Origin: Azolla caroliniana
Lineage: Eukaryota > Plantae > Polypodiophyta
Length of the DNA stretch: 64,000 bases
Assembly (NCBI GenBank): GCA_043228905.1
Contig: JBHGNT010000011.1
Coordinates: 4,836,001 to 4,900,000, forward strand
Reading direction: 5' to 3'
Under the pieces are notes generated by a model that was not told the origin of the DNA, searched no databases, and was given only the letters and a program-made list of their open reading frames with translations. Made by a program: the position numbers and the translations under genes. This document shows, piece by piece, positions 1 to 41,910 of the stretch; position 1 is the first letter of the stretch, and the number at the start of each line of letters is the position of its first letter.

Positions 1-1680
1 CTACTACGTCACCATAGCGCATCCCTAACTAATACAGTTTGCACATGTGGGTGCCAAATCTGTCGATCAAGCCCGCAAGAGGAGTGTAAATCATCTGAGC
101 ACGTTATCTCTTCCATGAGTTATTTATTAGATTCAATATTGTGTCCGAGAGAATCTGACGCTATCTTCCATATTCATAAATGTGTCATGGGTTTATGTCA
201 AGATTGTGGCCCTACTAGATTTAGGTGGTGTCCAAATGAATTGAGTAGTGAAATATTGATCTCTGTGAAGTTATTTGAGTCAGTGAACACCAATTTCGAA
301 GGAAAGGTGTGTAAAAGAAAGGATCTAGTTCGGAAGATGCTTAAACCAAGGGATTTGGTGTCTCTGTTTGTAGTATCTCTAGGAAAGTTCATTAAACACA
401 ACTTCATTTATTCATGGCAGGCCCATCAGTTTAAGACTTGCATATCTGATTTCCCAAATGATGTAGTAGTCTCAGTAGTAGATTTCGCAGAGAATTATAC
501 TTTCAAGCAGCAGAATGAAATTCAATCTATGCATTGGTGTTCAGTTCAGGTAACCATTTTTGTGCACATAACATATTTTCGAGTTTCAGGTGATGTTAAA
601 AAAGTAATTCATTTCTTTATTTCCGATGATAAGAAGCATGATACCTTGTTCGTCCAACACTGTTTTAAGTTACATTGGCAGTGGTTATTAGCTCAACGTT
701 TGGAGCTTACTCAACATTGGGTCTGGTCTGATGGAGCTGCGCCACAATTCAAGGCTCGACGTCCATTTTATTTTGTGGGGAGGTATCCTGCTATAACAGG
801 TTTGGAGATGAGATGGAATTTTTTTGGGTCTGGCCATGGTAAAGGTGAACATGATGGTGCAGGGGCTGTTATAAAGCGGGCACTTACCCATGAACAACTA
901 AAGACAGATGGTGTGCACATGAATTGTGCATCACATGTAGTTGAATTTTTAAGAACAAATATGTCGACGAGTGCCACAGGTGTTTATTCCTCGCAAGTTC
1001 GAGATATCAAACGTGAATTTTGGGAAGTGAAGATAGATGAAGTAAATAGGGAGAAGACCTGGGAGTGCCAAGGAATTCCCGAATTGCGATCTCTGCATGC
1101 TGTTCGCGGTTATTCCAGGTTGGATGGTCATTGTATTGCGGTTAGAGAATTGACTTGTTTTTGCTTCCATTGTGTGCAGGGAAATTGGAGATATTGTCTA
1201 AACAAAGCATACATTCAGAATTGGGAGTATCACACTCTGAATGATAAGGAAGCAGTTGATGGAGAAACAGGGCAGAATGCTGACTTCACATATGAGGGAC
1301 TTGGAGATACTTTGAGTGATGTCCTGAACGTTGGGGATAACTTCGCTGTAAATGCTGAAGAAGGCAATTCAGAGGGTGCTGATTTCTATATATTAAAGTG
1401 CACGGTTAGTAAACAGTGTGCAAGGCAGAATATTGTAGATGCATGGGGAAATTTTGTATCTGCCGGGACATTCTACATCGAAGGCATTTTTTATGCAAAA
1501 CTAGATGACTACGAATATGTGTACAGGCTGTTAGAAGACAAACCAGCAGCGTATATGTACTCTCATTTGGTCAGATGCATCAACGTCCCAATGTCAGAAT
1601 ACAATAGCTGCTCCGGTTTATACACTGTTGGTGCTAATGTGTATGAATGTATTTACAATAGTATGCCATGGAATTTGTAG
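1..1680 (+). CDS. Sola2-type DDD transposase, catalytic C-terminal exon (frame open from base 1)
   Basis: Motifs VVDFAENY..QNEIQSMHW...QVT, SDD..HD, WSDGA..QFK and WNFF..GHGKGEHDGAG..IKR give three candidate catalytic Asp residues. Cys-rich segments are present. No stop codon between 1 and 1677. Confidence 0.8.
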   Translation, partial: LLRHHSASLTNTVCTCGCQICRSSPQEECKSSEHVISSMSYLLDSILCPRESDAIFHIHKCVMGLCQDCGPTRFRWCPNELSSEILISVKLFESVNTNFEGKVCKRKDLVRKMLKPRDLVSLFVVSLGKFIKHNFIYSWQAHQFKTCISDFPNDVVVSVVDFAENYTFKQQNEIQSMHWCSVQVTIFVHITYFRVSGDVKKVIHFFISDDKKHDTLFVQHCFKLHWQWLLAQRLELTQHWVWSDGAAPQFKARRPFYFVGRYPAITGLEMRWNFFGSGHGKGEHDGAGAVIKRALTHEQLKTDGVHMNCASHVVEFLRTNMSTSATGVYSSQVRDIKREFWEVKIDEVNREKTWECQGIPELRSLHAVRGYSRLDGHCIAVRELTCFCFHCVQGNWRYCLNKAYIQNWEYHTLNDKEAVDGETGQNADFTYEGLGDTLSDVLNVGDNFAVNAEEGNSEGADFYILKCTVSKQCARQNIVDAWGNFVSAGTFYIEGIFYAKLDDYEYVYRLLEDKPAAYMYSHLVRCINVPMSEYNSCSGLYTVGANVYECIYNSMPWNL

Positions 1681-2200
1681 CTACAAGTAGCACTTACCAT
1701 GTTCTCTTGTAAAACAAACATGTATTTCGCGAAAACAGATCAATAAATTCGTTTGGAATCAATTTCTTGTATACAGTCTGCTTTCTGTGCTTCTTTCTCA
1801 ATAAAATCATGTATTTTTTGTTAAGTTTTAAGTTATAAGTTATAGCGAAATAGTCATCAGTAGCTAATTAGCTGTACAAATGCAGCTAATTAGCTGTACA
1901 AATGTATTTACAATAGTATGCCATGGAATTTGTAGCTACAAGTAGCACTTACCATGTTCTCTTGTAAAACAAACATGTATTTCGCGAAAACAGATCAATA
2001 AATTCGTTTGGAATCAATTTCTTGTATACAGTCTGCTTTCTGTGCTTCTTTCTCAATAAAATCATGTCTTTTTTGTTAAGTTTTAAGTTATAAGTTATAG
2101 CGAAATAGTCATCAGTAGCTAATTAGCTGTACAAATGCAGCTAATTAGCTGTACAAATGCAGCTAATTAGCTGTACAAATGTAGCTAATTAGCTGTCAAT
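1646..2200. repeat. ~255-bp tandem duplication of the transposase stop/3'UTR plus short AGCTAATTAGCTGTACAAATG repeats
   Basis: aatgtatttacaatagtatgccatggaatttgtag... occurs at ~1646 and ~1901. Confidence 0.9.
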
Positions 2201-2326
2201 AGCTAAATAGTCATCAATAGAATGAAATCAACAATCTGCAACATATTCCTCAAATTACATAGTAGATAAGTACAGTGGGAACAAGTAATTAAATTCTTCA
2301 TTGAATAATGTCATCTCTTTACATAT

Positions 2327-5300
2327 TTATAAATTACCATTGGAAATGTCTACAAATCTCCTATAAACAGCTAAGCTCTTGCTAGTCAGTGGAACGAGTC
2401 TACATATATTATCCGCATATTGAGCTCGGTATGGAGTCCACAACCATGCACCTAGTTGGCAGCTCACTGTTTGCACCAGGTACTGTTCAGGCATTTCCTC
2501 GGGTAGAATGAGACAGCATCTCCGAATATTGAAGTAGTGTCGGAAATGTTCTGTATCCAAAATCAATGTATTGTCAGCATTATATTCAGGCCAAGTAGCC
2601 CAAAAATCAGAAAGCCTCTTGAATCTTGCAGCTTCCATCTGCTCACAATTTTCTCGTGCCCATTGACCTTTAAAACGACTTCGCCATTTTGGGAAGAATC
2701 TTGCCAAACACTTCCACACATCTGATTTTGGTTTCTCACTCCAAATAAACAAATCGAAGTACTCCGCAGCCCACTCTAGAAACTGATTTGCGTCCCTCCT
2801 TGGCTGCATATATCTCACACTCATCAAGACTTTATCCAGCTCCAAGATCAAGGCTCTTCGCTCGACTTCTAGTGGTTTAGGTTTCCATTCCTGAAACTGA
2901 GCCGCTGTTACACCATTTTCTGGTAGGATACGATCAATCTCAATCAGCTCAGGTTCGGCTGACACAACTGGTGTCCTTTTCCTCTTTAAACCCCTAGTCG
3001 ACTGTGTTGGGCCTAGCTTCACATTCTGGTGCTCTTGTTTTGTCGACTTAGTTATCAATCCTTGGATTACCTCAGTGCATGTAGCTACTGTTCTGCTCGA
3101 TATCAATCCACTGGTATCACATGCTGCATCTACCTGCAACACCAAGTCATCCGTGCTACATGCTGCATCTACCTGCAACACCAAGTCATCCGTGCTACAT
3201 GCTGCATCTACCTGCAACACCAAGTCATCCGTGCTACATGCTTGATAAACTTGTGTGACCAGATCACTTGTGTCAGTTGCTACATCTACTTTCAAGATGG
3301 GGCCCTTTAAACATGCCGCAACATCAACAGTATCCACACTGCCATTGGCCTTACGAGCAATAGAATCAAACCCTTTAGACTCTGCAACATCAGAAAACAC
3401 CAACATATTCACACTCACAAAGTAACTACTAGTCTCACAAAACAATATCCTGAACATCAAAGAGTTTCAGTCATAGAACAACACTCTTCAAATTATCTTG
3501 GAAAAACATCATAGAGTTCCATTACATAATGTGGATCAAGCAACAACCAATCTGAGGTTTTACTTGTCCAACAGGATAGTAAAACTTCATAAAACCCTAG
3601 CAAAATCCCTAAGCTAACAATCATATCCAACTAAACAGTATTTCGCTCCACTACGTCTGGGCCCCTTGACCGAGTAACTGGTCTTGTTCCCGATCGTGGC
3701 CCCTTCTTCAGCCTTTTTCTGGTTGGTTCCCCATTTAGCCTTGCTTCTAGGACCCAATGCGCAAGTGTGTCCTCCTCCGACAACCTTCCCATCGCCTCAG
3801 CAGCTAATTGCACATCAGCCGTTTCTTGAACTAGCTTTTCAAGTACAGAGGGATCTGTTTGGACATTTTCAGTAGTTGGGCTCGGTGGGGTGGAATCAAG
3901 GTCTTGAGACTCGAAGAAATGTTGCATCAAGTGTTCATAAACACTGTTGTTGTGAACCTCAGTTTTACATGTTGTTTCCACTATTTCATGGCATTTCACA
4001 TCGTTGCCTAATTCAGTACACTGTTCCAAAAGAATAGGGTGCAGCTGATCTGAAGGAGATGTGATAGCAGGACTCTTACTTTCAGCCACATTGGCAGTAG
4101 TATCCTCATCTGTTGCAGCATCATCAGCACCAGACACATCATGTGCCGTCCTTAATCCACAAGATTCTACAATAACATGACAGTTATTTAGGATAGCTAA
4201 TTAGCTACTTTACTAAACTATGGTAGAAGCTAGGATAGCTAATTAGCTAGTACGATAGCTAATTAGCTAGTATGATAGCTAATTAGGTACTTTACTCAAC
4301 TATGGTAGTAGTTAGGATAGCTAATTAGGTACTTTACTCAACTATGGTAGTAGTTAGGATAGCTTATTAGCTACTAGGACAGCTAATTAGCTGCCAGTAG
4401 CTAATTAGCTACTAGGATAGCTAATTAGCTGCCAGTAGCTAATTAGCTACTAGGATAGCTTATTAGCTACTTTACACAACTATGGCAGTAGCTACTAGGA
4501 TAGCTAATTCGCTAGAAGGATAGCTAATTAGTTGCCAGCAGCTAATTAGCTACTAGGATAGCTAATTAGCTACTAGGATAGCTAATTAGTTGCCAGTAGC
4601 TAATTAGCTAGTAGGATAGCTAATTAGGTACGTTACTCAACTATGGTAGTAGCTAATTAGCTAGTAGGATAGCTAATTAGCTACTTTACTCAACTATGGT
4701 AGTAGCTAATTAGCTAGTAGGATAGCTAATTAGCTACTAGGATAGCTAATTAGCTGCTAGTAGCTAATTAGCTACTAGGATAGCTTATTAGCTACTTTAC
4801 ACAACTATGGCAGTAGCTAATTAGTTACTAGGATAGCTAATTAGTTGCCAGTGGCTAATTAGCTAGTAGGATACCTAATTAGCTTTTTTACACAACTATA
4901 GTACTAGCTAATTAGCTAGTACCATAGCTAATTACCTACTAGGATAGCTAATTAGCTAGTAGGATAGCTTATTAGCTACTTTACACAACTATAGTAGTAG
5001 CTAGGATAGCTAATTAGCTACTATGGTAGCTAATTAGCTACTTTACTCAACTATGGTAGTAGCTAGGATAGCTAATTAGCTACTTTATTAACTATGGTGG
5101 TAGCTAGGATAGCTAATTAGCTACAATGAAAGCTAATTAGCTACTTTCTCAACTATGTAGTAGCTAGGATAGCTTATTAGCTACTAGGACAGCTAATTAG
5201 CTAGTAGGATAGCTAATTAGCTACTAGGATAGCTAATTAGCTACTTTACACAACTATGTCAGTAGCTAATTAGCTACTATGATAGCTAATTAGCTAGTAG

Positions 5301-8183
5301 GATAGCTAATTAGCTAGTAGGATAGCTAATTAGTTGCCAGTAGCTAATTAGCTAGTAGGATAGCTAATTAGCTTTTTTACACAACTATGGTACTAGCTAA
5401 TTAGCTAGTACCATAGCTAACTAGCTACTAGGATAGCTTATTAGCTACTTTACACAACTATGTCAGTAGCTAATTAGCTACTATGATAGCTAATTAGCTA
5501 GTAGGATAGCTAATTAGCTAGTAGGATAGCTAATTAGTTGCCAGTAGCTAATTAGCTAGTAGGATAGCTAATTAGCTTTTTTACACAACTATGGTACTAG
5601 CTAATTAGCTAGTACCATAGCTAACTAGCTACTAGGATAGCTTATTAGCTACTTTACACAACTATGTCAGTAGCTAATTAGCTACTATGGTAGCTAATTA
5701 GCTAGTAGGATAGCTAATTAGCTAGTAGGATAGCTAATTAGTTGCCAGTAGCTAATTAGCTAGTAGGATAGCTAATTAGCTAGTAGGATAGCTAATTAGC
5801 TTTTTTACACAACTATGGTACTAGCTAATTAGCTAGTACCATAGCTAACTAGCTACTAGGATAGCTTATTAGCTACTTTACACAACTATGTCAGTAGCTA
5901 ATTAGCTACTATGGTAGCTAATTAGCTAGTAGGATAGCTAATTAGCTAGTAGGATAGCTAATTAGTTGCCAGTAGCTAATTAGCTAGTAGGATAGCTAAT
6001 TAGCTTTTTTACACAACTATGGTACTAGCTAATTAGCTAGTACCATAGCTAACTAGCTACTAGGATAGCTTATTAGCTACTTTACACAACTATGGCAGTA
6101 GCTAATTAGTTACTAGGATAGCTAATTAGTTGCCAGTGGCTAATTAGCTAGTAGGATAGCTATTTAGCTTTTTTACACAACTATGGTACTAGCTAATTAG
6201 CTAGTACCATAGCTAATTAGCTACTAGGATAGCTAATTAGCTAGTAGCTCATTAGCTGCCAGTAGCTAATTAGCTAGTAGGATAGCTAATTAGAAAAGAC
6301 TAAGCTTATTAGCTACAGTATGGTATACCTGTTTGTTTTCTCCACTCATTTGGTAGAGTTGTACTGCAATCTCCCAAACAGAATGCAGCAATTCGACAGG
6401 CATGTTGAAAACAAAGCAGATGGTATGTGTGGTTGCATGGTTGTAGGTGAACCAACAAAGACGCAGTTTTGTCCTCCACACCTAACCCGCAAGCGATGCA
6501 ACGTGCTTGAACTGTCAATAAATCATTTTCTGGTTCTACTTCATTTGGTAAGGGAGCAAGAATGTTCAGGTCCAAATCCTGTCTGGTCCTTACCATTCCC
6601 TCCACAAAATGTAGCTTCTTCTTAAGGCAGCTAACTACCTGTTCTTGATGAATGTATTGTTCCTTCAACGCAACAGAGAAATTTACCGATTAATTATTCT
6701 TGTTGTTGAAAGATACACCAACTTTGCTCAGGAATCGTTAACTTACTTGAAGCTTATCCAAATTGTAATCTGCAACAGTATTTACACCTAGAAGGTCCAG
6801 GTTCATTGAAAGAACCTGGATCTCTATTTGCAGTTCTATTTTACGCTGGGGATCCAGTGGCCCCTCTAATTCAAGCTCCTGTTGCGTAACCTATTCCAGA
6901 TAATGCTTGATTAGCACATTTTACCCGTTATTTATAACACAATCACATACCAGCAAAACAATAGTTACCTGAATCTTATTTCTAATTGTTGTAACAGCAG
7001 AAGTAATTTTGCTCTCCATTGCAGAAGCCATTGTGGCTTTCTCTAAATCAGTCTTAAAAAATGCCAATGTCTCACAGGCTTCATGGACATTTTTTAGCAT
7101 ATAGCTAACAAATGTCTCACCTGTATCATCGACATTGGCTTTCCTTGGGTGTCGGTGTGGTGTATGCCCCCGGTCTTGCTGGGAGTCGGCAGTTGCATCA
7201 ACAGCTGCCATGCTCCAAAATCTGTCTATTTTTTGTGCCAAGGTCCCCATCTTTCGGCATCTTTTTACCGATGCCTCACCATAGACTGCCCAAGCTACCC
7301 TATACATTTCAGGGTCTCTAGATTCCTTCGCTGTTTTGCAGTACTCATATGCAAATGCTCTAGCAAATGAAACTGACAACTCATTGTTGACTGGGATCTC
7401 CTGATGAACTTTCTGGTGCAGTCTCATGCAGTCATCGTACAAGTCGGCTCGTACATGCTTCAGCTTGACCTTGCCTTTGACTCTAGGCACTGTATATACT
7501 GTCATCCAGTCTATATCACTGATCAATTTATCACTTAGGACAGCAGGGTCAACACCCTCGAGTGACAGACCATAGGTGTTGTGGAAGTCCTCCTTTGTCT
7601 CGCAAAATTTTGCGAAGTTTAGCACTCTCGTATACGGAGGAACGAGCCATCTGAAATATCATTTCAGAAATCAGAAATAGTGCAAAATCAGAATATGTGA
7701 GAATCAAAAACCCCAATCAACAACAACAAAAATGGTGCAAAATCTTTAACTTAACCTAATCAAAATCTGTAATCAGAAGTTTGAAATCAGAAACCCTAAT
7801 CAAAATCTGTAATCAGAAGTTTGTAACCAGAAACCTTATTCAGAAATTCTAATCAGAAATTTATAATCAAAAACCCTAATCAGAAATTTCAATCAGAAAC
7901 CCTAATAAAAAATTTCAATCACAAACCCTAATCAGAAATCCTAAGCAGAAATTTATAAACAAAAACCCTATTCAGAAATTCTAATTTGTAATCAAAATTT
8001 GTAACCAGAAACCCTATTCAAAAATTCTAATCAGAAATTTATAATCAAAAACCCTAATCAGAAATTTCAATCACAAACCCTAATCAGAAATTTCAATCAC
8101 AAACCCTAATCACTAAAGACAGGATTAAACACAAAAAAAGTAATATAAACACACCTGTTGCTACTCCCCGATTTGCGAGACAT
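2327..8183 (-). CDS. Predicted six-exon TE accessory protein (~776 aa): N-terminal domain, coiled coil, RING finger, repeat linker, degenerate FCP1/NIF-like HAD phosphatase domain
   Basis: Exons 8183-8155, 7650-6969, 6890-6747, 6662-6329, 4166-4080 and 3381-2327 are all bounded by GT/AG with compatible phases (2331 nt in total). RING: CIAC...PCNHTYHLLC...C...C. HAD-like: LILELDKVL...FLEW...FDLFIWS...W.R..C...NTLILDT. The splice model is inferred. Confidence 0.65.
3118..3241 (-). repeat. In-frame 39-bp tandem repeat (QVDAACSTDDLVL x3)
   Basis: catgctgcatctacctgcaacaccaagtcatccgtgcta is repeated three times; copy 2 has a single unit. Confidence 0.9.
4190..6292. repeat. Intronic tandem array built on the palindrome TAGCTAATTAGCTA (~20-bp units, ~204-bp higher-order repeat)
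   Basis: Dozens of agctaattagct cores. The landmark tttacacaactatgtcag recurs at 5245, 5449, 5653 and 5877. Confidence 0.95.
7680..8112. repeat. Degenerate telo-box (AAACCCTAA) tandem repeat in an accessory-gene intron
   Basis: About nine AAACCCTA motifs embedded in aatcagaaa units; homologous array at 30700-31190. Confidence 0.85.
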
Positions 8184-8637
8184 CCTTGTATGGGACTCCA
8201 AGGACTTCGCCCTATTCGATTTTGGGGAAATATGAATCGGCACCAAAGTTCAGACAGTAGTCAAAAAGAAAAAACAAATGTTTGGGGTTTCTGTAACTGA
8301 AACATACCTGGACGATGATCGAGCGGGTTCTGTGTTGTAGCTCTCAATCTGCAATGTCGATTTTTTGCTGTTGCGGGAGCTACGTCTGCGTTCGTGCTCT
8401 GAGTACTCCATCTGCGTTCAAAATCAGACTTAGGCTAAACAGGAAATTGATGACATTGAAGTCGACCTTAGATGATGGTGATATTCCCCAAGTTCCACTA
8501 CGTCTGAAACAGAAGTTCAAATATTTGAGTTTTTTCATAAATTAGTTTTTCAAATATTTGATTTTCCCACAAGAAAGACTAGCTAAACAAATAGCTAATT
8601 AGCTATGGCCATTTTAGTAGCTAATTAGCTATAATAG

Positions 8638-8662
8638 TGTTTCCACTCGCATGCTTTTACCC
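8638..8662 (-). repeat. Right terminal inverted repeat of Sola2-like copy 1
   Basis: tgtttccactcgcatgcttttaccc is the reverse complement of gggtaaaagcatgcgagtggaaaca. Confidence 0.85.
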
Positions 8663-10480
8663 TATAACCGAAGAGCTAGTCGGCTACACCGATGCCGATT
8701 GGGCCGGCGATGCATCGGATCGCAGATCCACCTCCGGCTATATGTTTTCCCATGGTAACACAGTTGTTGCGTAGAGCAGCAAAAAGCAGCCAACAGTGGC
8801 CCTTTCGAGCACTTAGGCTGAATACCGCAACGCTATCGTTGCCACCTATGAAGCCATTTGGCTTCAGTGACTGCTGCAAGACCTGCGTGTGGATCGAGGT
8901 GCCAACCCCGATCTTGATCTACTGCGATAACATAAGGAGCATGTAGCTCACCAAGAACCCCGTATTCCATGCTTGCACGAAGCACATAGAAGTGCACTAC
9001 CACTTCGTGCGTGAGCGTGTCATGAGCGGGAAGTCGAACTTCGGTATGTTCATACGGATCGGCAAGTTTCCGACATCTTCACCAAACCGCTCGGTTCACC
9101 AAATGATGTTGCGAAGATTCGCGCGTGCGTGTGCTACTCGAGCGACCACCGGGGTCTTGGACTGGGGAGGATGTTCGCGGAATTATCGAAGAGATGACGA
9201 TCAATGTAAGATTAGACGGAATTTGTTCACTTGAGAAGAAGAAAGCTTGTACACTTGAGAAGTAGAAAATAATGAAGAAGATAAAGACAAATATAATTAT
9301 ATTGATGATAATGGTGTTGGTGATATCACATATTGAGCCCCCCTTACACAAGCCCAACTAGAGGCTTTTATAGGTCTTTCCATGCTTGTGACATGCACAA
9401 AACCATGAGCTAAAACCATGGTTTTGTGCACACGGTTTTGCTTATGTCATGCACAAACCATGGGTTTAAAACCATGATTTTGTGCACATGGTTTTCTATG
9501 GTTGTTTCGTCTATAATTTGTATATGAAAAGGAAATACATAAAATCTACACTATATGATAGTTGTCCTAGTGGTAAGGCAATTATCTTGTATCTTAGAGG
9601 TGCAAGGTTCAATCCTTGCTCGCACCCCTCTGTATGAACTCAAGTGCCACTAGGCCTTAGGAGGCTTATTTGCTAAGTGTATGTGCAATGTTGCACATCC
9701 TTGGTTTATTCGTCTCACTCGGTTTCACACCGTAGCCGAAAATCATCACGACAACGTGCAGCACTTCACCGAAATGCTTGGTGTTCAGCATCTCGACGTG
9801 CCACTCTTGAGGGGGAGAATGGGCAAAGACACCGGAATGGGCAAAGGCAAAGAAATTGTCGATTGCGTCGGTGAGGGAAGAATCGACAAAGGGAGAGACA
9901 AGAAGAAGAAGGCCAAGACCCGGACATGGTCGATTGTGGTGAAGGGCCTAGAACCGGAAGACGAATCGGGATTGATTGATTCAGAAAAGAGCTGGAACGA
10001 ATAAGAGACAACTGATTCGGTTCAACAGACGGATTCAGAAGAACCGGATCAATTCAAGGCCAAGAGGATGAGAAGGTAGAGAAAGTCGACGACAACACAA
10101 AGGACTCGGCGAATCGGCAAGCGCCGAAGTCACAAGAACGAGGGAGCTGAATTGGGCCTGTTGAGCAGACAATCCGACAGCGGAGGTCGAGGTGCGTAGA
10201 ATCAGAAGGGGCGCGGCAAACAGGACCGAACTGGACGAGGAGCGCGAGTGAGGCTGAGTGATGCCAGAAGGAGCCGGGTGGAAGAACCGACTACCATGGA
10301 GACTGACACTACGATCCGACCTCAACTTGATCTTGAGGGGGAGTGTTGAGCGGCAAGCTCAACCGGATCTGGATCGGCAAAATAAGCCTGAGCCGGATCG
10401 GTGAGCCGGTGAACCGGGGAACCTGCTAGCCGGATCCAGCAGTAACCGGAAGAGTAGTAGTAGCCTAGACTTCTAGGTAA
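8663..10480 (+). mobile_element. Ty1/copia 3' fragment (RNaseH, charged 3' extension, PPT, partial 3' LTR from 10344), interrupted at ~9092-9753
   Basis: [23 protein letters not shown] and DIFTKPLG motifs; gagggggag|TGTTGAG junction; LTR similar to 62418-62790. Confidence 0.85.
9092..9753 (-). mobile_element. Isolated LTR (9107-9753) with remnant tRNA-Trp PBS, non-chromovirus Gypsy-type
   Basis: Termini TGTTGCGAAGAT...ATCATCACGACA resemble the 59444-60463 LTR. cggttcacca lies just outside the LTR; TATA at ~9365-9373. Confidence 0.7.
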
Positions 10481-11411: not shown

Positions 11412-14400
11412 ACACTAGAAATGGAAAGAGAGTTTATATTATAAGAGAGAGCAAGGATTACAAAGAGTAGGCTAAAGGGCTACAAACTGGTGTTGAACCG
11501 AATGAGTTGTGATGAATGAATAGATACCTATTTATAGGTCCTTATGGAGTATTCTAGAATGTTCTAGAATGTTTTAGATATTTATGATGTTGACTATAAT
11601 CATGGAATATCCTAGAATGTTCTAGAATACTCTAAATATCTTGTAATAACTAATAATACATTTATTATAACTATACATCATATATGTTATTATAATGGTT
11701 AAAGGTGTAACATATAGACCAAGACGTCTTGGGCTCGAATCCTTATAAGGCTAGAATGTATGTCTTCATGACATTATTCCCCCCTTTTCGACGACGAGTT
11801 CCACGAGTCGGAAGAAAAGATTTCGGACTTGGCATATGGGGATATTTGTTGTGAAAAGCAGCAACTATTTCGGAGGCATTAGCAAGATTCTCGAGAGGTT
11901 CCCATGTTCGATCATTAGGTGTATATCCTAACCAGTCAACCAAATAATACAGTTTGTTGCGAACGATCTTGGAGTCGAGAATGGCAGCAACTTCATATTC
12001 GGAGCCATACGAAACTTCGATTGGAGGTGGGGGAGATGTAAGACGGCCTGGAATAGAGCTGGTTGTGTACGGCTCCAAAAGTGAAACATGGAAGACCTGG
12101 TGAAGATCAAGGCGAAATGCCACATCATTGATCTTACCAGATATCACATATGGGCCAAAACGTTGATAATCCGATTTTTAGCAAGGTCAATGGGTTGTTT
12201 TAATGCGACCTTGTAAAAGCCATACTTGATCTCCCACTTGAAACGTAGTTGATGAATCACGTCAATGACGGTCGGAAACCTTCTTTTGAGTGTTTTGAGC
12301 ATCACATAAATGGTCCAAAAGGATATCTTGAACTTCTTGGAGTCAGGGGAGCCGATCTTTAGCTGCCGGGTTTGTCAGGAGTTTGAGATGTTCAAGCATA
12401 GTCCAACGAGGATGGTACCCAATGTTTGCAAAAAATGGGGAATATCTAGTAGAAGAATGTTCTGAGTTGTTGTAAACAAATTCCGCCAAATGTAATAGAT
12501 CAACCCAATCATCTTGTTGATAGTTGACAAAACAATGAAGATATTGTTCTATTGTTTGGTTGGTGCGCTCACTCTGTCCGTTAGTTTCTGGATGGTAGCC
12601 GGAAGAGAGTTTGCAAGAAGTATGTAAGAGTTGGACCATGTGCCGCCAAAATTTTGAGATGAACTGGGGACCTCGATCATTGATAATATCATCAGGAAGA
12701 CCATGAAGCCGAAACACCTCTCGCATGAGTAACTTGGCTGTCTCTTGGCTCGTAATGGCCTTTGTGCAAGGATGAAAATGTGCCATCTTGGTAAAACGAT
12801 CTACTACTGTGAGAATAGAATCAAAACCCTTGGAAGCTGGTAGATTCATAATGAAGTTCAATGAAATAGATTTCCATGGACTCTTAGGAATAGGCATTGG
12901 ATGTAATAACCCATATCGATGATGTCGAGGTTTTTTGGATTGGCAACATGTATCACAACTACGAACATAATCCGTAACAAAATGGCGAAGTCGTGGCTAC
13001 CAATACCTTTGAGAAATTAATGCCAAAGTCTTGTGGATGCCGAAATGTCCAGCCATTGGTGTGTCATGACATTGTTGCAAGATTTGGCATTGAGAAGGAC
13101 CATTAGGCACATATAAGAGATTTTGTTGAAAAAGTAAATCATCATGCCAATTGAACTGGTTGTAGTCTTGACGAGGATTTTGAGATTGTGAACAAGAAAC
13201 AAGATCTGGGATAATATGGTTCAGAATGTCTTGGGTGAATTCATCAGTCTCAATATGCTCCGAATGGAGTCCAGAAGATTTGAATCCCCGGATGTGTTTA
13301 TAGCGTGAAATGCCATTAGTCGTAGACGGTTAGGACCGAAGAGGATTTGCTTTTGATTTTCAAGTGCGACCTCTCCTGGTTAAAGTTACATATATGAACG
13401 CCGAGATAAAGCATCTGCTTTTCCTTGTTGCGTCCTAGGGCGATATAGAATTACGAAATCAAAACGAGTTAAGAACTGCGCCCAACGAGCTTGTTGATGA
13501 CTCAAGACTCGAGCACTTTGGAAGTACGTTAGATTTTTGTGATAATTATAGACAATGATTTGTTGAGACGAACCCTCCAAAAAATGATGCCATTGTTGAA
13601 AAGAATCCACAATGGCAAAAAGTTCTTTGTCGTGAATCTCATAGTTGATTTCTGCAGCTTCGAATTTCCGTGAATGAAAAGCCACAGGGTGTAGTTGGCC
13701 ATCATTGCTAATCTGGGATAATACGCTTCCTAGTGTGAAGTCGGATGCATCAGCTTCGAGTATAAAGCGCTTCAATGGATCAACATGCATCAAAATTGGT
13801 GCAGATGTAAATGCTTGCTTTAATCCTTCAAATGCAGAGTTTGCATTTATACTCCACACAAATGGTCGATTCTTTTGTGTCAGTTGAGTGAGGGGCAATA
13901 CGATCTTTGAATAATCTTTGATGAATTTGCGATAAAAGTTTGCGAACCCCAAAAAACATTGTACATCTTGCACAGACTGTGGTGTTTGCCAATCCAAAAC
14001 TGTTTGAACCTTTGCTAGATCCATAGAGATGCCATGTGAAGAGACTATGTACCTCAAAAATTCCACTTGACGTTGGTCAAAATTGCAGTTCTCCAATTTT
14101 GCATAGAGACCATATTCACGCAACCGTTGCAAAGCTTGTCGAACGTGTATATCATGATCCTCTTGAGTTTTTGAGTAGATCAAGATATCATCTAGGTAAA
14201 CTATGACGAAAATATCAAGGAAATCTCGAAAAATGTCATTCGCCATATGTTGGAAAACTGTTGGTGCATTAGTGAGACCAAATGGCATCATTGTATACTC
14301 AAATCGCGAGTACGGAAAGCAGTTTTCCATTCATCCCCAGGATGAATTTGAACAAGATTGTAAGCACCTCGAAGATCTAACTTTATGAAATACTTAGCTC

Positions 14401-17024
14401 CACTGAGGTGTTCCAAAAGGCTCAAAATCAATGGTAGAGCATATCGGTTTTGAATAGTTACTTTATTCAATCCTCGATAATCCACGAACAAGCGCAACGA
14501 ACCATCTTTCTTTATAACGAAAAATATGGGTGCACCGGCAGGAGATCTTGAATGTTGGATAAACCCATTTGCCAAGTTCTCATCGATATATTCTCGAAGA
14601 ACCTCTAGCTCCGTGGGCGAAAGGTTATAAATTGGCCCCCATGGAGGCTCTTTTCCGGGATGCAAATCAATCAGGCAATCAAATGGTCGATGCTCTGGTA
14701 GTCTATTGGCCTTCACCTTATCAAACACATCGGAGAATTCTATATATTTCTTCGGTAGTTGGACCCCCGATTCTTGTGAGCTCGATGTGGGAGTTGCTAA
14801 AACTGCAAACACCAACATGTCTTCCTTCCGTCCTTCCTCACGTAACTAATATATAGAGATTGTCGAAATCTTTTGGAATATCATATCCTTTCTTGGAGTT
14901 TTAAGAGACTCAGACTATATTGTGAGCTCTTCAATGGTTCTTTTTCTCCAATCAATAGTTGGGTTATGTAGCTCAAACCATGGAAGATCAAGAACTAGGG
15001 AGTGCTCTGGACTACTAATGATGTTGAATGAGATGACACTAGCCAAATTGCATAGGACTACACGAATTGGTTTAGACTCTTCAACTATATCACCTGATGC
15101 TATGGGGTGTCCATCAATGACTTCGACAGAAACTGGGCTTGGGAGCTTATGCAACTGAATATTATGCATTACAGCAAACTCACGATCCATGAAACAAGAG
15201 TTGGCTCCAGAGTCTAAGAGGGTTGAAGCTGGGACTTGATGGCACCTAAATGTGTTAAGCTCAACTTGTGCAGAGAAAACTCGACTAACTTGACCGGATG
15301 AAATGGAACCACAACTAGGGATGAACGTTACATGCCTAGGGCTGTCCAACCAAATGGCTCCGATTTTTGCCAAACTTACTCATTTAACACATCATCTAAT
15401 TGGCTCAAGACATCAAATGTATTTTTATAACAGGGACTACTAGGCCTACTTGGGTTACGAGAAGGCGGGGCAGAAATTGAGATGGGATTGTCATGAGCAC
15501 TTACTTGGTTAACTTGTCGTCGTGGTTTATGTGGACAATTCACAACAATATGCCCTAGACCACCACAATAGAGGCATAGACAATTCGTTCGCCGTCGTTG
15601 CTTTTCAACATCTGGTAATGGTCCTCGACGTCGTGTTGTCTCGGTGTCCATTGGAGTAGGGCCTTCAACCACACTTGACTTTGATACTTGGGGTGGAGTT
15701 GCGACCACCGAAGCATATGTTTTTTGTTGGTCGGAACTATAACATTTGTTGGCGCTCAGAATGCCGCTCAAATAAGTGATTCTCACATCACACGGCCCGG
15801 TTTACTGCTTCAGTAAGAGATTATGGATCATCAAGAAAGGTAAGAAGTAAATCCTTCACATCATTGCGTAGAACTTCACTAAATTGGTCCAGTAATGCCG
15901 CCTCGTCCCATGGAATATCACATGCTAGAAGGCGAAAATCTGCAGCATAAGCGGAAGCAGGACGATCTCCTTGTCGTAATTGTCGAATTTTGTTTATTGC
16001 GGTCCTCATACTATCGGTGTCTCCAATGTTGTCTTAGAACTCATTAATAAACCTTTCAAAATCTTCTAATAATTGTGAGTGCTTCTCTAGGAGTGGTGCA
16101 AACCACGCTAATGTGGTACCCGTTAACAAGGTACCAACTAGTCCCACACGAGCAACATGAGTTGGGTAACGTCTAGGATGCAATTTAATCACAAGCCGTA
16201 CTTGATTTTAAAATTCACGAAATTGAGACATTGTGCAATCAAACTTGGCCGGCAGACTAATCTTGGGTTCCTTCGGCGAGGTTTGAACTTCTGACACTTA
16301 TCGTTGCAATAGAGTACTCTCCAATTGATGCACCCGTTGAGATAATTCTTCATATTGTTGTACTTTCTCAACACTTACTTGTTGTAGGTCTCCCAACAAT
16401 TTTTTATTTTCATGCTCCAGTGCCATGAATTTGGTTGTTAGCATGTCGAGCTTGGAGAGAACACGCATATATTCTTGCTTGCTGTTGAACTCCATAGTTA
16501 CGAGAGAAAACTGCTAGATTTGCTTGAATAAGGTTAAGATAAGAAGAAGTTGGGGAAGAAGAAAAGAGAGATATTCGGTTCAAACTGTCGAGACTTGAGA
16601 GTAGGAGAGAGAAAGATAAGATTACGATAGAAGGTATACATAGAGAGAGAGAGAGAGAGACAACACTAGAAATGGAAAGAGAGTTTATATTATAAGAGAG
16701 AGCAAGGATTACAAAGAGTAGGCTAAAGAGCTACAAACTGGTGTTGAACTGAATGAGTTGTGATGAATGAATAGACACCTATTTATAGGTCCTTATGGAG
16801 TATTCTAGAATGTTCTAGAATATTTTAGATATTTATGATATTTACTATAATCATGGAATATCCTAGAATATTCTAGAATACTCTAAATATCTTGTAATAA
16901 CTAATAATACATTTATTATAATTATACATCATATATGTTATTATAATGGTTAAAGGTCTAACATATAGACCAAGATGTCTTGGGCTCGAACCTTTGTAAG
17001 GCCAAAATGTATGTCTTCATGACA
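11305..17024 (-). mobile_element. Full-length degenerate Ty3/gypsy chromovirus A (Tcn1/Tf1-like, self-priming)
   Basis: LTRs 11305-11773 and 16586-17024 (TG...CA) with 5-bp TSD CTCGG. Gag CCHC, PR LLDSGA, RT YLDD, RNaseH, integrase and chromodomain (YEVAAILD...YLVDWLGY...TWEP). PPT at 11774-11788. Confidence 0.95.
11552..11569. promoter_or_regulatory. Heat-shock element in Gypsy A LTR U3
   Basis: TTCtaGAAtgTTCtaGAA, four alternating nGAAn units ~15 bp upstream of the TATA (11529-11536). A second cluster lies at ~11610-11637, and both recur in the 5' LTR. Confidence 0.65.
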
Positions 17025-20000
17025 CTCGGTTGCTACATCGAAGAAGAGGGGAAAGTCATCGAGAACACCAATGAAGTCGGAAGGATACAAGGATACAAGG
17101 TCGAGTTAGACATCGACCTATGCCACAAGAAGTTCGTCCATGTTAACTTCCCACAGCTTTGTGAAATTTAGATGAAGAACATCGTTTTCAGATTGCCGAA
17201 ATTTAGTGACGGGAACGACGAAGTCTGCAAAGCCTGCTCGGCAAGCAGCACCGACTTCCATTCCCCAATGAGCATAATTGGAGTTGAAGTCCGCTCGATC
17301 TGATCCATTCGGATGTATGGGGACCAACACAGAACGTGAGCATCGGAGGAAGCCGTTACTACGTAACCTTCATCGATGGCATCACTCGTCACACTTGGGC
17401 GTGCTTGATCGCGAAGTCTTTGCGTGTTTCCTGAAGGTGAAGAGCGTTGCGGAAAGGGAAACTGGGCTAAAGATCAAGTGCCTAAGGTTCGATGGTAGGA
17501 AGGAGTACTTCTCCGACCAGTTCCTGAGTTATCTACAGAAGGAGGGAATTCAATGCGAATTCCCGTGTAGATACACACCGCAACAAAACGGCGTGGCCAA
17601 GAGGAAGACTTGGATGATAGAGGAGTCGGCAAGGGCAATGCTTGAAGATAAATATCTGCCGAAGTTCTATTGGGCTGAAGCAATCAGAATAGCCGTCTAC
17701 CTCCAGAATCGGGCATCTGCCAATGGAGGGGTGTCGCCACATGAGTTGTACTTCAAGAAGAAGCCGAACTTGGCACACTTGAGGGTTTTTGGTGGCATCA
17801 TGTATGTGCATGTGCCGAAGGAGAAATAGAGGAAGCTGGATGCCAAAGCCGAGAAATGTATCTTGGTTGGTTACTTAGACGAACAGAAAGGTTATAAGTG
17901 TTATAATCCCCGAACCAAACAATCTCGCCTAAGTTGTGATGTTGTGTTCGATGAGTCTGCATCGTGGTACTTGCCTTTGCCTCCAACCCTTGAGGAATCC
18001 ATTCCGATCTCTAACGAAGAGGTCAAAGAGGCTAACATGCCTCAGGACAAAGGAGACATTGGAGCTCTTGATGAGAGTTTGATCTCATTCATGCTAAATG
18101 GGACGAATGAGCGATTGAGTCGGCAGGACCAGTCAAACACAGAGCCAACGAGTAGTGGAGACTCGGTCGTGCATTCCCCGCGTAAGAAGCCGAGGAGATG
18201 GTTTATGTGGAAAGAGAAGGGAAAGAAGAAGATTCCGGAGTACGACATTGATAAACACGAATCGGATCGAAGCAAATCCAACTCCGAGAAGAGCGAAAAC
18301 GAAGTCCATGTCGACCAAGAGGGCCTCAAAATCGGCTAATGAGCAATTACGCCGATCTACCAGCTAGAAGAAACCGGTGGTGCAGTTCGGATCCAACGAG
18401 TACATGGCACATCATTATGCGTACATGACACGAGTGGCGGAAGTGCGTGAGACGGAGAGCTACGCAGAAGTGGCGAAGGACGCAAATTGGCGTGCCACAA
18501 TGGAGGAAGAGATGCACACATTAGCGGAAAATGAAACCTATCACCTGGTTGACGCCTCGAAGGGTGTAAAGCCGATTGGATGCAGGTGGGTGTACAAGGT
18601 CAAGTACAACACCGAGAACTCGAGTCAACTGCTACAAGGCCCAGTTAGTGGCGAAGGGATATACACAACAAGACGACATCAACTACGATGATACCTTTGC
18701 GTCTGTCGCAAATATGACAACCGTCCATGTTCTGCTTGCGGTAGCCGCGGTAAATGGGTGGCATTTACATCAGATGGATGTAAAGAACTCGGTGGTATGC
18801 CATCTGCAAGAGTCCCTCTACGAACTAAAACAAGCCCCGTGCATGTGGAACACGAAGATCATGCAACGCCTGCGTCGGCTAGGGTTTGCGACGTCCAAAT
18901 CGGACTCTTCATTGTTCGTCCGTCAAGGCTGACATGGACCGGTTAGTATTTTACTTTATGTTGATGATTTAGTCATCGTCGGTGCGGACCTAGATGAAAT
19001 CGGTCGCGTAAAGTCCCAGCTTGCGGCATCATTCGACATGAAGGACCTAGGGACCTTCATTACTTCCTAGGGATCGAAGTGATCTGCACCCCCGAAGGCA
19101 TATTGATCAGCCAATGATATTATGTGCTGAGTATCCTCTTAAAATTTGGGATGGTAGACTGTAAGTCCTTCTCACTTCCTCTGGAGAGGAACGTCAAGCT
19201 TCACCGAGATTTGGGGAAGGCCTACGACCTGACACGGTTCTGACATATTGTTGGAAGCCTAATTTATTTGATGATCACTCCGCCAGATCTCGGTTACCTG
19301 GTCAGCCTGATCAGTCAATTTATGTTGCAGCCCAAGGCCGAACACCTTCAATGTGCGTAAAGGATATTGCACTATGTCCGCGACACTAAGGATAGGGCAC
19401 TGATATATTGGACCGGTATTGCCGCACAACTCGTCGTCTACTCGGATTCTGATTGGGCCGAAAATGCCAGCGATCGTAGATCCAAATTTGTGTTCGCTTT
19501 CTTGCTTGGGAGCGTTGCGATCGCCTACAGTAGCAAGAAGCACCCGATAGTTGCATTGTTGAGCATGGAGGTTAAGTATCAAGGAGTGGCTTTCGCGACA
19601 TGTGAAGCCATTTGGCTCAAGAGACTACTCAAGGATCTGCAGGTGGAGGTGTCCACTCCGACGACGATCTACTGCGACAACCTCAGCAGCATCCAACTTG
19701 CGAAAAACTCTATCTTCCATGCCCGAACAAGGCACATTGATGGGGTCTACCATTTTGTTCGTGAGTGTTTCCTCTCCGGTGAAGTTGAACTAGCGTATGT
19801 TCTCACGGATCGGCAGACTGCCGACATCTTCACCAAGCCCCTTGGTCTCAACAAGTTGCGGAAATTCTCGGGTGTTCTTGGTTTGCGACATCTCGATGTG
19901 CCAAACTTGAGGGGGAGAAAAAACCAGGAAAGGAGCGGAAATGACCGCAAAGCATAGTCGGATGAAGAATTTGATTTCGGGTCAGCTGAAGAAGCCGAAG

Positions 20001-20789
20001 GCGGAAACAGGGGCAACAACCGAAGGGAAGAGCCGGACCGGAGTCAACTGAACAAGGGGGAGATGAAACCAAGAAGGGCAAGAAGGACAAAACCAAGACA
20101 TGGTTTGATGTGGTTAAGGGCCTGAAGACAGAAGACGAATTGGAGACAGCCAATTCGGGCAAGAGCGGAAACGAATCGGAGACAACCGATTTGGTTCAAA
20201 TGTTCAATTCGAAGACGCCGAATCAATTGAAGGCCAACGGAGGAAAGGGTTGTGGAAGAGGTGCCAACACCGTGACAGCAAGGGAGCTGAGAAAGCCAGC
20301 ACGAGCAGACAAGCCGTTCGAAAGGGTCGAGGCACACGGAATCGGGGTTGAGGAGCGCGAGCAAGGCGTGAAGCTAGGTGAAACTGGAACAAAGATCTGG
20401 AAGAGTAGGCGGAACCTCAAGTTGAGCTCGAGGGGGAGTGTTGAGATACAAGCTCAACATTGGGTGTGTAAACCGGGAGGTCGTTGGATAGATATTCCAT
20501 GGAGGAATATATTTTTGGGAGTTAGGTAGGGGCTCATTGATGAGAATTGAAGTACGTGTCAGTACTTCTGTCAGTCTATATGGACTTGTATAAAAGTGTT
20601 CTCTAAGCACATCCTATGTACAAAGTTTTAGAGTATTATTTTGGAATAGAGTTTTCTGTGTTCTGCTCTCTTTGTCTCTCCCGTGTATATTGTGTTGATT
20701 AAGCTTTCCATTAAACCTTCCTTGTCTCTTGTCTTTTGTGTGTGGTTACCCGATTGTGTTTGTTAAGCTTCCGCACGTATTCTTTTGCA

Positions 20790-21559: not shown

Positions 21560-22845
21560 TGTAAAAAGAATAGCATGCGGAAGCAATAGAAAACCGAACA
21601 CAGAAACGCAGGTTTAATGGAGAGCTTGAATATACATGGTACGCGGGAGAGACAGACAGTGAGAGAGAGAATGCACACAAACTCAATTCAAAAAATTATA
21701 CTCAATCTGTACATAGGATGTGCTCAGTGAGCACTTTTATACAAGTCCATATGCTCGTAAGTGAGCTCTACACTAACTCCAAAATATATTCCTACGCGGA
21801 ATATCTTTCCAACGGCCTCGCGGTTTACGCACCGCTATGCCTTCTCGTTGCGCACCTGTTTACACACCTGGTTTAAGCACCCGATCCGGTCTAACCGATC
21901 AATCCCAACCGATCCGATTCTCGACTTGCACAGCCGATCCGGCCAATGTTGAGCTTGTATGTCAACACTCCCCCTCAAGCTCAACTTCAGGTTCCATCCG
22001 CTCTTCCAGATCTATGCTCCAGTTCCTTCTAGCTTCACGCCTTGCTCACGCTCCTCGACATATTCGATTCCGCACGCCTCGACCCTTCCGGTCGGCTTGT
22101 GTGCTCGTGCGGCCCTCCTCAGCTCTGTTGTTGTCGTGGTGTTGGCGCTTCTTCTGCTGCCTTCTCTTCCGCTTGGCCCTCAGTTGATTCGATGTATCCG
22201 AATCAAGCGTTCGAAGCAACTCGGCTTCCTCCGATCGGTTTTCGCTTTCGTCCGAGTTGGCTGTCTCCAACTCGTCTTCGGTCTTCTCGCCCTTGATGGC
22301 TTCGTCTCCCCCACGTTTGGTTGGCTTCGGCTCTTTCTTTCGATTGCTCCCCTTATATCCGCTTTCAGAATCTTCCGCAGATTTGCCCTCGGCTTCTTCA
22401 GTCAATCCGAAATCGAATTCGTCATCCGACTCGGCGTCGCGGTCTTCTGGAACTTCTCTCTGGGTGAAAGCATGAGAGTGGAAACAATTAGCTATGTCCT
22501 TGACATAGCTAATTAGGTATGCAAAAAGCTACCATTGATAAATAGTCATTTTAGCAAAAATCCATCATTAATAAATTAACTATGCAAAAAAATACCATTG
22601 AAAATACTAGAGTGTTTTAATTACATATGTAAATGAGCACCATAAATGTGCAACATAAACGTGCAACATAAATTGATATGTGCACCATAAATTATATATT
22701 GAATTCCTAGGTCCATTATGCATGATCCTTTGCCACATCACGTAGGCCATCTCTAGTTGAGTATTGTGGGTTAGTTGCTACCACTATTGCTAAACCCTAT
22801 TGAGTCCACCTGCCGCCACTCTACACTTAGGGGCCGCTACTGTGC

Positions 22846-23056
22846 GTTCCAAGCATCATCAGTAACTGTTCAATCTGACGGGGTTCTCTTCTCTGTGCCA
22901 CTTTACACTCAGGGGCCACCACTGTGAAGATCGTGTATTGTTGCCACTTTTCGACCCGACGGCGTTAACAACTCCACTGCCGCCATTCTACTCTGAGGTG
23001 CCTTCTCTGTGTGTTCCAAGCATCATCAGTAACTGTTCAATCTGACGGGGTTCTCT
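22846..23056. repeat. 44-bp direct repeat in the transposase 5' leader
   Basis: gttccaagcatcatcagtaactgttcaatctgacggggttctct at ~22846 and ~23013. Confidence 0.85.
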
Positions 23057-23389
23057 CCTCCATTGCCATCATTCTACACTCAGTTGCCGCTACTGTCCAG
23101 TCCTGGATTGCTTCCACATTTCGATTTGACGGAGTTCACTCATCCAACGACAACATTCTACACTCAATTGTCACCATTGGTCGGTCCTGGATCGCCTCCT
23201 GAACTGTTTGATCCAACGGAGTGAACTCCTCTACTGTTCGGTCTTTGATTGCAATAACTTTTCTGTCTATTGTTTATCTTGTGTATTGTTGTGTCTAATC
23301 TTGTGTATTGTGGAATATTTTTGTGTCTTGTTGTTGCCCATAGCCATCTTAAATACTTGTTTTTTTCTCTGGAAATTTAGGGTTTTAAT

Positions 23390-24123
23390 ATGTCCAGCCA
23401 AATGGAAGGGGAAGAAGGGTGTTTAGAATTACCCCTCAATGATCATAAGGATAGGGATGATGCTATCAGGACACAACAAGCCATACGAAACTATTGGGTA
23501 GAAAAAAAAAGGAAACATTGTCAATTGTTGAAGGATACGAAAGCTACACTCAGTAAAGGTAAGGATAGTTTAGCTGAGAATGTAAGTAATGCGACTACCA
23601 TCATAGAGAGAAAGGTTGTAGACTATTTCAATGTTCAAACCAAGCACATCAGCAATGAAGAAAAGAAGGTAGTACTTTATGGAATATTAAATGATCCATC
23701 GATAAAGGACTTAGTTGATTGTGATGGTCTTAATGCAAACATATCATCTATTTTAGTAAATAATCTTCGTAATAGTTTTGTATCCATGAGCAGGTCAGAA
23801 GATGATCTTGTCTTAAAAAGGTCTAGTCTAATGATGTTACTTAATAGTGATGTTGACGATATAAAAAGGTAATTGGTGTTAGTAGAAAAACAATGTACAA
23901 TACAATGAACCGTATAATTTCCTCGGGTGAAGGAACTAGTCTACTAAAGCTAACTACAAGATGTAAGCCAATGACACCCATAACATTTGAAATCAAGGAT
24001 GTAATCACAATGTTTTGGACTAATGAGAGTAGGGTTTCACCCAATAAAAAGGATTTATGCAGGAAACGTGTTGGAAGAAATCAATATGAGGAGCATCCCA
24101 TTCATCTTCTTGATGTACCTCAG
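23390..24123 (+). pseudogene. Transposase N-terminal exon of copy 2 (1-nt frameshift near 23865)
   Basis: The ATG follows an AG acceptor at ~23380. Repairing the A-run gives the HTH-like ..VIGVSRKTMY.. and then SRVSPNKKD..RKR; donor CAG|GTATTT at 24124. Confidence 0.65.
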
Positions 24124-24167
24124 GTATTTACATTTATCTCAACATTTGTTTTGACTCTACACGGAAA

Positions 24168-24862
24168 GTTAATTAGCTCAGTTAGCAGAAAAGCTAATTA
24201 GCTTATCAGTTACATTTACCTCAGTTAGCTACTAGGATAGCTACTACATAGGTAACTCGCTACTCTCAATAGCTACTACCATGATAGCTAATTAGCTATT
24301 CTCAATAGCTACTACATAGGTAACTGGCTACTCTCAATAGCTACTACCATGATAGCTAATTAGCTATTCTCAATAGCTACTACATAGGTAACTGGCTACT
24401 CTCAATAGCTACTACCATGATAGCTAATTAGCTATTCTCAATAGCTAATTTAGTTACTACCGGATAATTAGCTACCAAAATAGCTAACTAGCTACCATGA
24501 TAGCTAATTAGCTATTCTCAATAGCTAATTTAGTTATTACCAGATAATTAGCTACCAGAATAGCTAATTAGCTTTTAGGATAGCTAATTAGCTATTAGAA
24601 TAGGGTTTTAGCTACCATGATAGCTAAATAGCTACTAGAATAACTAATTAGAATAAGTAGTTAGCTAATTAGCTATTAGAATAGGTAATTAGCTACCATG
24701 ATAGCTAATTAGCTACTATGATAGTTAGTTACTCTAGTTATTACCAGCTAATTAGCTACCATGATAGCTAATTAGCTACTAGAATAGCTAACTAGCTACT
24801 AGAATAACTAATTAGCTACCATGATAGCTAATTAGCTACTAGGATAGCATATTAGCTACTAG
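24168..24862. repeat. TAGCTAATTAGCTA palindrome array in the transposase intron
   Basis: Same core palindrome with different spacers (ccatga, actaga, ttctcaa). Confidence 0.9.
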
Positions 24863-24869
24863 AGGAGTG

Positions 24870-30699: not shown

Positions 30700-31190
30700 T
30701 TTCAGAAATCAGAAATAGTGCAAAATCAGAATATGTCAAAATCAGAAACCCTAATCAACAACAACAGAAATAATGCAAAATCATTAACTTAGCAAATCAG
30801 AAACCCTAATCATAATTTGTATTCAGAAATTTGAAATCAGAAACCCTAATCAAAATCTGTAATCAGAAGTTTGAAATCAGAAACCCTAATCAAAATCTAT
30901 AATCAGAAGTTTGTAACCAGAAACCCTATTCAGAAATTCTAGTCAGAAATTTATAATCAAAAACCCTAATCAGAAATTTCAATCAGAAACCCTAATTAGA
31001 AATTTCAATCACAAACCCTAATCAGAAATTCTAATCTGTAATCAAAATTTGTAACCAGAAACCTTATTCAGATATTCTAATCAGAAATTTATAATCAAAA
31101 ACCCTAATCAGAAATTTCAATCACAAACCCTAATCAGAAATTTATAAACAAAAACCCTAATCAAAAATTTCAATCAAAAACCCCAATCAT
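30700..31190. repeat. Telo-box tandem repeat, copy 2
   Basis: aaaccctaatcagaaa units homologous to 7680-8112. Confidence 0.85.

Positions 31191-41612: not shown

Positions 41613-41648
<36 letters not shown>

Positions 41649-41873: not shown

Positions 41874-41910
<37 letters not shown>

Follow-up and report, generated by a model that had tools for sequence, protein, structure and literature searches.

The window analysed here, a stretch of 64,000 nucleotides (nt) from the fern Azolla caroliniana (assembly GCA_043228905.1, contig JBHGNT010000011.1, positions 4,836,001 to 4,900,000), opens inside an intact Sola2 DNA transposon of 12,352 bp, which extends from window position −3689 to 8662 and has the same ends in all young copies. 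Two convergent genes occupy this element, a transposase on the forward strand running towards a reverse-strand gene that is predicted to join a RING-H2-like finger to a NIF/HAD domain. This RING/HAD gene is the second gene of the Sola2 element and is under purifying selection. A preliminary description of the locus had proposed the RING-HAD fusion but left out the Sola2 context, the N-terminal domain family of the same protein and the palindrome arrays described below.

The right-hand part of the element fills positions 1–8662 and ends in a 25-bp terminal inverted repeat (TIR, 8638–8662), followed by the target-site duplication (TSD) TATA at 8663–8666; the left TIR lies 3,690 bp to the left of the window (G000:C11:4832311). 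Both TIRs are 25 bp long and carry GGG at their ends, and Sola2 TIRs start 5'-GRG. A 4-bp TSD flanks all nine young copies with both ends (TATA, GTTA, TTAG, TTAA, ATCA, TAAT, ATAT, TAAA and CTAG), and an AT-rich one flanks one of two such older copies; this is the length given for Sola2 in passages of PMC3627910 and PMC10741241. Most of transposase exon 2 lies at 1–1680 (+), exon 1 being to the left of the window, and the 863-residue two-exon model carries the motifs DFxENY, SDD..H, SDG and HGK..DG (here DFAENY and HGKGEHDG for the first and last) at residues 465, 512, 546 and 583, which agree by eye with the DDD motifs of the published Sola2 alignment (PMC3627910, Additional file 10). A Pfam scan of the transposase gave no match, and an Atlas search yielded only a lead to DUF7869. 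A 255-bp tandem duplication (1640–2149, 99% identical) lies between the convergent genes and spans the transposase stop, and an array of ~83-bp repeats precedes the transposase within the element, left of the window (L031:6680-7330). The element thus shares DDD transposase motifs, short TIRs and AT-rich 4-bp TSDs with Sola2 transposons (PMC3627910), and amoebozoan Sola2 elements also have a second gene, Fanzor1, according to part of the same paper. It differs from other Sola2 elements in that the second gene has introns, encodes an N-terminal domain, a coiled coil, a RING-like finger and a HAD domain, lies convergent to the transposase and is accompanied by palindrome arrays.

The family is abundant and has been active recently enough to leave nearly identical copies. 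When the last exon was used as a DNA query, 512 candidates came up, of which the 40 that were scored were all 99–100% identical (at least 40 copies), and in a protein search all 150 scored matches, among 619 candidates, had at least 95% amino-acid identity (at least 150 near-identical copies). The young set used below, consisting of the window copy and nine fetched copies chosen for their likeness to it (n = 10), differs by 1–7 of 1,322 nt over exons 2–4. Both genes are intact in the window copy; within the young set the 820-residue model of the second gene is intact in seven copies, the 618-residue model in eight and the transposase in five of the eight that could be read. Among 44 older stretches the HAD exon is present in 26, and a convergent transposase stands beside it in 22 of the 25 with room beyond. 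A second, truncated element copy lies in the window itself (22462–31467); it has a left TIR at 22462, lacks the gene start and the right TIR, is disrupted by stops and frameshifts, and its exons are 89–96% identical. C-to-T changes affect 11–18% of CG/CHG sites in old copies, as against 2–3% of CHH sites, a deamination signature from which we conclude that the host methylates the Sola2 family.

The six exons of the preliminary description (29 + 682 + 144 + 334 + 87 + 1055 = 2331 nt, or 776 amino acids and a stop) are present with AG/GT ends and join in frame, but this model is incomplete: an upstream coding exon and an earlier acceptor add 44 amino acids, giving seven exons and 820 residues. 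On the reverse strand, the upstream exon E0 (8308–8411) begins at ATG 8411 and is in frame, with its ATG and donor kept in old copies. Exon E1 extends over 8155–8211, so that the exon described at 8183–8155 is only its 3' half. Exon E2 (6969–7650) encodes the N-terminal domain (~7620–7200, ~140 residues) and the first coiled-coil helix, E3 (6747–6890) a predicted coiled coil whose family profile matches coiled coils, and E4 (6329–6662) the RING-H2-like finger (6500–6366). Exon E5 (4080–4166, donor GT at 4079) leads in the fusion to E6 (2327–3381), which comprises a linker, 13-residue repeats (3238–3122), a KRKR patch (2986), an IDR motif and the NIF/HAD domain, with ELDKV at 2842 and LDTEH at 2560; the patch, the ELDKV and DT readings and the stop at 3631 were all correctly read in the earlier account. 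The intron between E1 and E2 (7651–8154) is made of repeats with TTAGGGTTT (seven exact units, also in copy 2), which resemble plant telo-box or telomere motifs.

Splice sites were compared across 45 aligned older sequences, each kept where at least 60% of the segment was covered (27, 34, 31 and 25 of 45), and groups of fewer than three copies were left out except L111, L112 and L114. The splice dinucleotides, already reported to be kept in copy 2, are kept in most old copies as well: the E0 donor is GT in 27/27, the acceptor at 8211 has A in 27 and G in 26 of 27, the E1 donor has G in 27 and T in 26 of 27, the exon-2 donor has G in 32 and T in 34 of 34, the donor at 4079 is GT in 29/30 and fits the phase of E6, and the last acceptor has A in 30 and G in 27 of 31. 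Acceptor position −3 shows C/T swaps, the last acceptor reading YAG with C in 23 and T in 7 of 31.

Exon 5 also has a long form (3631–4166) with a basic tail (RKRLKK...TRSR) and a stop. Its frame is open in all five old groups and its stop position is kept, after RSRG(S/P) in older groups; the shorter RING-only isoform proposed earlier, here of 618 residues, is therefore likely real. We consider it probable from these sequence patterns that two donors share one acceptor, use of 4079 giving the 820-residue RING-HAD protein and read-through of the donor the 618-residue form. A conserved non-coding block (3505–3575) contains a donor-like GT at 3563 (31/31, and also in the distant L113). Stop-codon read-through of the long E5 into this donor is in frame in the young subfamily and was rejected, the phases being 1, 0 and 2 in 28, 20 and 7 of 55 copies, with further stops; inspection of 3575–3505 for a coding micro-exon revealed no phase-1 donor.

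Selection was measured as the ratio of non-synonymous to synonymous substitution rates (dN/dS) between the window and majority sequences of old groups, whose copies are 13–25% diverged. Constraint is strongest on the exon-2 domain (0.09, 0.11 and 0.11, p ≤ 2e-11; shifted frames 1.4–3.0), followed by exon 3 (0.17–0.25), the HAD domain (0.25 and 0.30, p < 4e-8; shifted frames 0.95–1.26) and the finger (0.27, 0.28 and 0.56; p 0.004, 0.009 and 0.08). The linker after the last acceptor (0.36–0.84) and the read-through part of E5 (0.51–0.68, p 0.005) each reach significance in one of five comparisons, and E0 alone in neither of two (0.38 and 0.53; p 0.08 and 0.21).

Among 1.84 billion representatives, 138 are relatives of the exon-2 domain, which belongs to no dedicated Pfam family, as judged from the exon products and 98 aligned relatives. 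Its predicted fold is confident (predicted local distance difference test score, pLDDT, 93–98 over residues 11–150), and a coiled coil follows. Foldseek gave no match to this model at E ≤ 0.001 in PDB or viral libraries, where the long helix of the model filled the list; VIA-align returned only coiled-coil matches, to residues 172–227, and Atlas no usable match, results that are no sign of a new fold. A RING is present in 11 of the 138 relatives, an NIF domain in six and both in four, and these four are hypothetical proteins of Adiantum nelumboides, the genus to which the named relatives that were looked up belong. The linkage of RING and HAD thus recurs in distant models: P0060 is 20–26% identical to P0120 and P0126 in the longer segments, yet in all three the N-domain is followed by the coil, the RING, a basic patch and NIF, in this order. 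In P0105 and P0106 a single open frame carries the N-domain, coiled coil and RING, and they therefore do not share the introns of the window gene.

The finger has eight predicted zinc ligands in C3H2C3 order (C-x2-C..C-x-H-x2-H-x2-C..C-x3-C), kept in the window and in the old subfamilies, and six of the eight are invariant over seven aligned relatives. Its Pfam scores lie below the cut-off, and 29 of the 33 matches of its profile in the PDB are RING proteins by name, headed by Vps18 (E 7e-4) and RNF38 (1e-3), then RNF165, Arkadia and other RING-H2 proteins. In RING E3 ligases, E2 binding involves a Trp and a Pro, and an Arg serves as linchpin. The C3H2C3 ligand order, kept across the family, is what the finger has in common with these proteins; it differs from RNF38, RNF165/Arkadia and Vps18 in the x3–x4 spacing of the last pair and lacks both the central-helix Trp and the Pro and Arg at that pair, where RNF38 has KWL and CPICR. 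The RING E3 of the preliminary description accordingly survives as a RING-H2-like finger, but its ligase activity is doubtful because the Trp and CPxCR of the aligned E3 RINGs are absent.

The C-terminal domain scores 32.4 bits against Pfam NIF (cut-off 21.8, E 9e-8), its predicted model (pLDDT 86.6) finds UBLCP1 with Foldseek at E 2.7e-7, and its profile finds UBLCP1 at 7e-9, TIM50 at 3e-3 and FCP1 at 0.16. The NIF/HAD fold proposed for it therefore stands, but descent from RNA polymerase II (Pol II) C-terminal domain (CTD) phosphatases in particular is not supported, since UBLCP1 is nearer than FCP1 and the nearest relatives read DLNG. The reported loss of the nucleophile is borne out: Glu occupies this position in 105 of 108 loci, and the equivalent change in CTDNEP1, D67E, eliminated activity according to part of PMC11145253. 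The corresponding nucleophile in SCP1 is Asp96, as stated in a passage of PMC7281111; for SCP1 D96E nothing was found in the literature. The domain retains Asp+2, Val+4, the motif-II Ser, the motif-III Lys, the first Asp of motif IV and the Arg of RENC. This Arg we take to be equivalent to Arg178 of SCP1. To judge from these residues, the domain is very probably unable to form a phospho-Asp intermediate and inactive, and it might tentatively be expected, at somewhat less than an even chance, to hold rather than cut a phosphorylated substrate, because the nucleophile is lost but Asp+2, Ser, Arg, Lys and the motif-IV Asp are kept.

HAD relatives across plants read LDLNG and DDSPYK. With this group and with UBLCP1, CTDNEP1, TIM50 and SCP1 (PF03031) the domain shares its fold (Foldseek E 3e-7 to 7e-5), Asp+2, Ser, Arg, Lys and the motif-IV Asp; it differs from PF03031 phosphatases in its Glu, in a post-motif-I insert that has 15 residues fewer than that of the host gene L145 and 25 fewer than that of P0060, in having no UBL, BRCT or membrane part, and in its place behind a RING in a transposon. 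UBLCP1 is a nuclear proteasome phosphatase, a dead mutant of which still binds its partners, as reported in part of PMC5451543. The only host NIF locus to match is the DLNG gene L145/L146, at 25% identity; the two genes (G000:C15:261700 and 234883) are near-identical, intron-less and 27 kb apart. In a phylogeny built from 65 of the 73 rows (eight were left out), the ELDK group joins Adiantum-type DLNG domains (support 100/99, branch 1.8), apart from L145, with a long-branch warning near this clade. An Asp-bearing subfamily in the genome was considered and rejected, as only two of 108 loci carry Asp and these lie nearer to Glu copies or no nearer to each other, and are not sisters. No DLNG-type transposon copy was found in the genome with P0152, and a P0106 search found nothing at E 1e-15. 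A weak shared-word screen for longer relatives of the HAD domain retained none of 122 candidates, and a profile of close HAD relatives gave only chance matches in the PDB.

The intron between E4 and E5 (4167–6328) contains an array of 45 exact copies of TAGCTAATTAGCTA, a 14-bp palindrome. The element has 73 exact sites, of which 70 fall within a single intron per gene and three near the ends, where one stands beside the left TIR and two beside the right; with one mismatch allowed the window has 128 sites, all within the two element copies. TAGCTAATTAGCTA was found in all 15 diverged loci checked, two metagenome contigs included. Ten elements that are otherwise nearly identical (4.8 differences in 1,322 nt) have intron arrays of 1,306 to 3,776 nt, with 25 to 72 copies. 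The 13-residue repeat before the HAD domain likewise varies in length, in 13-residue steps. VANC proteins of Arabidopsis VANDAL elements, Mutator-like elements (MULEs), contain tandem peptide repeats and target dense, fast-changing intronic repeats, according to part of PMC5735166. Common to both systems are an accessory gene, a short motif in dense and changing intron arrays, and tandem peptide repeats; the present element differs in its superfamily, in its RING and HAD modules, in having no DUF1985 or DUF287 and in a motif that is a palindrome unchanged across subfamilies. By analogy with VANC, the N-terminal domain may read the TAGCTAATTAGCTA palindrome, a proposal for and against which we see the case as evenly balanced.

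Based on the above data, we propose that the protein acts as a self-addressed anti-silencing adaptor, likely nuclear, whose net effect would be local anti-silencing; we give this a probability of roughly 40%. The N-terminal domain would dock on the element's own TAGCTAATTAGCTA arrays, the RING-like finger and the likely dead HAD domain could serve as protein-binding modules, and donor choice would decide whether the HAD module is attached (820 versus 618 residues). The bound adaptor would then keep the element out of host silencing, and the kinship of the HAD domain suggests the nuclear proteasome or the Pol II CTD as candidate host partners. We regard as rather unlikely the wider proposal of an old counter-silencing device unrelated to VANC, in which a palindrome-reading DNA reader of unnamed fold, with or without a UBLCP1-like phospho-trap, would be tied to the ubiquitin-proteasome system or the Pol II phospho-cycle.

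Several observations weigh against the adaptor. The N-domain has 21 Lys and Arg against 18 Asp and Glu, and DNA binding is an argument from analogy; Pfam gave no DUF1985 or DUF287 match in five exon products or in the families listed for 98 aligned relatives, and the palindrome could instead be bound by the transposase or be a by-product of slippage. Only six of the 35 relatives of at least 400 residues have an NIF domain (11 have a RING), the Adiantum fusions are predicted "hypothetical" models, and two other Adiantum models, P0151 and P0155, comprise the NIF part alone. The Adiantum relatives also keep the nucleophile (DLNG), and the dead site is therefore specific to the present lineage; human TIMM50 is reported to be active and the fungal protein not, in part of PMC8346121. 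A check of the junctions against RNA found no spliced read, run X1 giving only unspliced contigs and runs X2 and X3 next to nothing, which is evidence neither way, so that all splicing is deduced from the comparison of copies. Finally, ATG 3406, in the HAD frame, is kept even in the distant L113, and the HAD part could be a separate protein of 359 residues.

This last point leads to a scheme of two products, a 618-residue N-domain/RING protein and a separate HAD protein from ATG 3406, which is compatible with any function and which we consider somewhat unlikely. The long E5 open in five of five old groups accords with it, as does the near-invariant stretch of 45 nt before the last acceptor (3382–3426; 0–3 differences, against 6–24 in other introns), within which L111–L114 all retain the ATG at its distance from the HAD frame; however, the YAG of that acceptor is kept through C/T swaps and in phase with donor 4079, the stretch from donor 3563 to the ATG holds no conserved acceptor, and four Adiantum models join RING and NIF. 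Captured host fragments carried as passive cargo without function are highly improbable and largely refuted by dN/dS: the host genome does have a single-exon gene from this broad NIF group, but purifying selection is strong, the same architecture occurs in another fern, and the transposon-type NIF domains form their own clade apart from L145.

In CACTA elements TnpA loads or bridges the transposase, and a comparable transposition cofactor, which would bind the palindromes and load or bridge transposase with no effect on silencing, would explain why palindromes adjoin both TIRs and why the gene travels with a transposase. We judge it unlikely, since 70 of the 73 exact palindromes are intronic and more than 2 kb from the ends, and RING and HAD modules are of no evident use to a loader. 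The preliminary description suggested a pseudophosphatase that is coupled to an E3 ligase and could trap or degrade a host silencing factor. Under this model the ligase would be active, and the dead phosphatase domain would seize the phosphorylated factor for degradation, in trans and without DNA binding. The profile matches to the RING-H2 E3s RNF38, RNF165 and Arkadia speak for it, together with the partner binding kept by dead UBLCP1, the nearest solved HAD; yet Vps18 is the best match of a finger without the Trp and CPxCR of RNF38, and the model leaves the best-conserved part, the N-domain (dN/dS ~0.1), and the arrays unexplained, which makes it quite unlikely.

Elsewhere the window holds remains of other elements. 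Two broken Ty3/Gypsy elements (11746–15379, with a chromodomain, and 35249–39478) are 65% alike, and Ty1/Copia remains with RVT_2, SH3_retrovirus and GAG-pre-integrase matches lie at 17278–20500, 31850–34902 and 58067–62357; the one that begins near 31467 lies directly against the broken-off end of copy 2. A long TG/TA-rich simple-repeat region with 219-bp units occupies 41500–46200, and an open frame of 310 residues at 47778–48707 (−) has no Pfam match.

Taken one by one, DNA transposons with two genes, Sola2 elements carrying a passenger gene and anti-silencing guided by a motif are already known. No description of a Sola element with a RING/HAD gene was found in the literature at the level of titles and the beginnings of abstracts, and Repbase or the supplements of fern genome papers may describe one. 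VANC is the case of sequence-specific transposon counter-silencing that can be cited, and this element would be an unrelated second candidate, in another superfamily and another plant lineage, in which direct testing is possible because the protein and its likely DNA target are available along with an autonomous copy that is intact. The gene also defines an unnamed domain family with a confident predicted fold, and it presents a phosphatase in which DLNG gave way to ELDK while selection continued. For genome annotation, hundreds of "FCP1/TIM50-like" and RING matches in the genome represent transposon cargo, as may the Adiantum models of like name.

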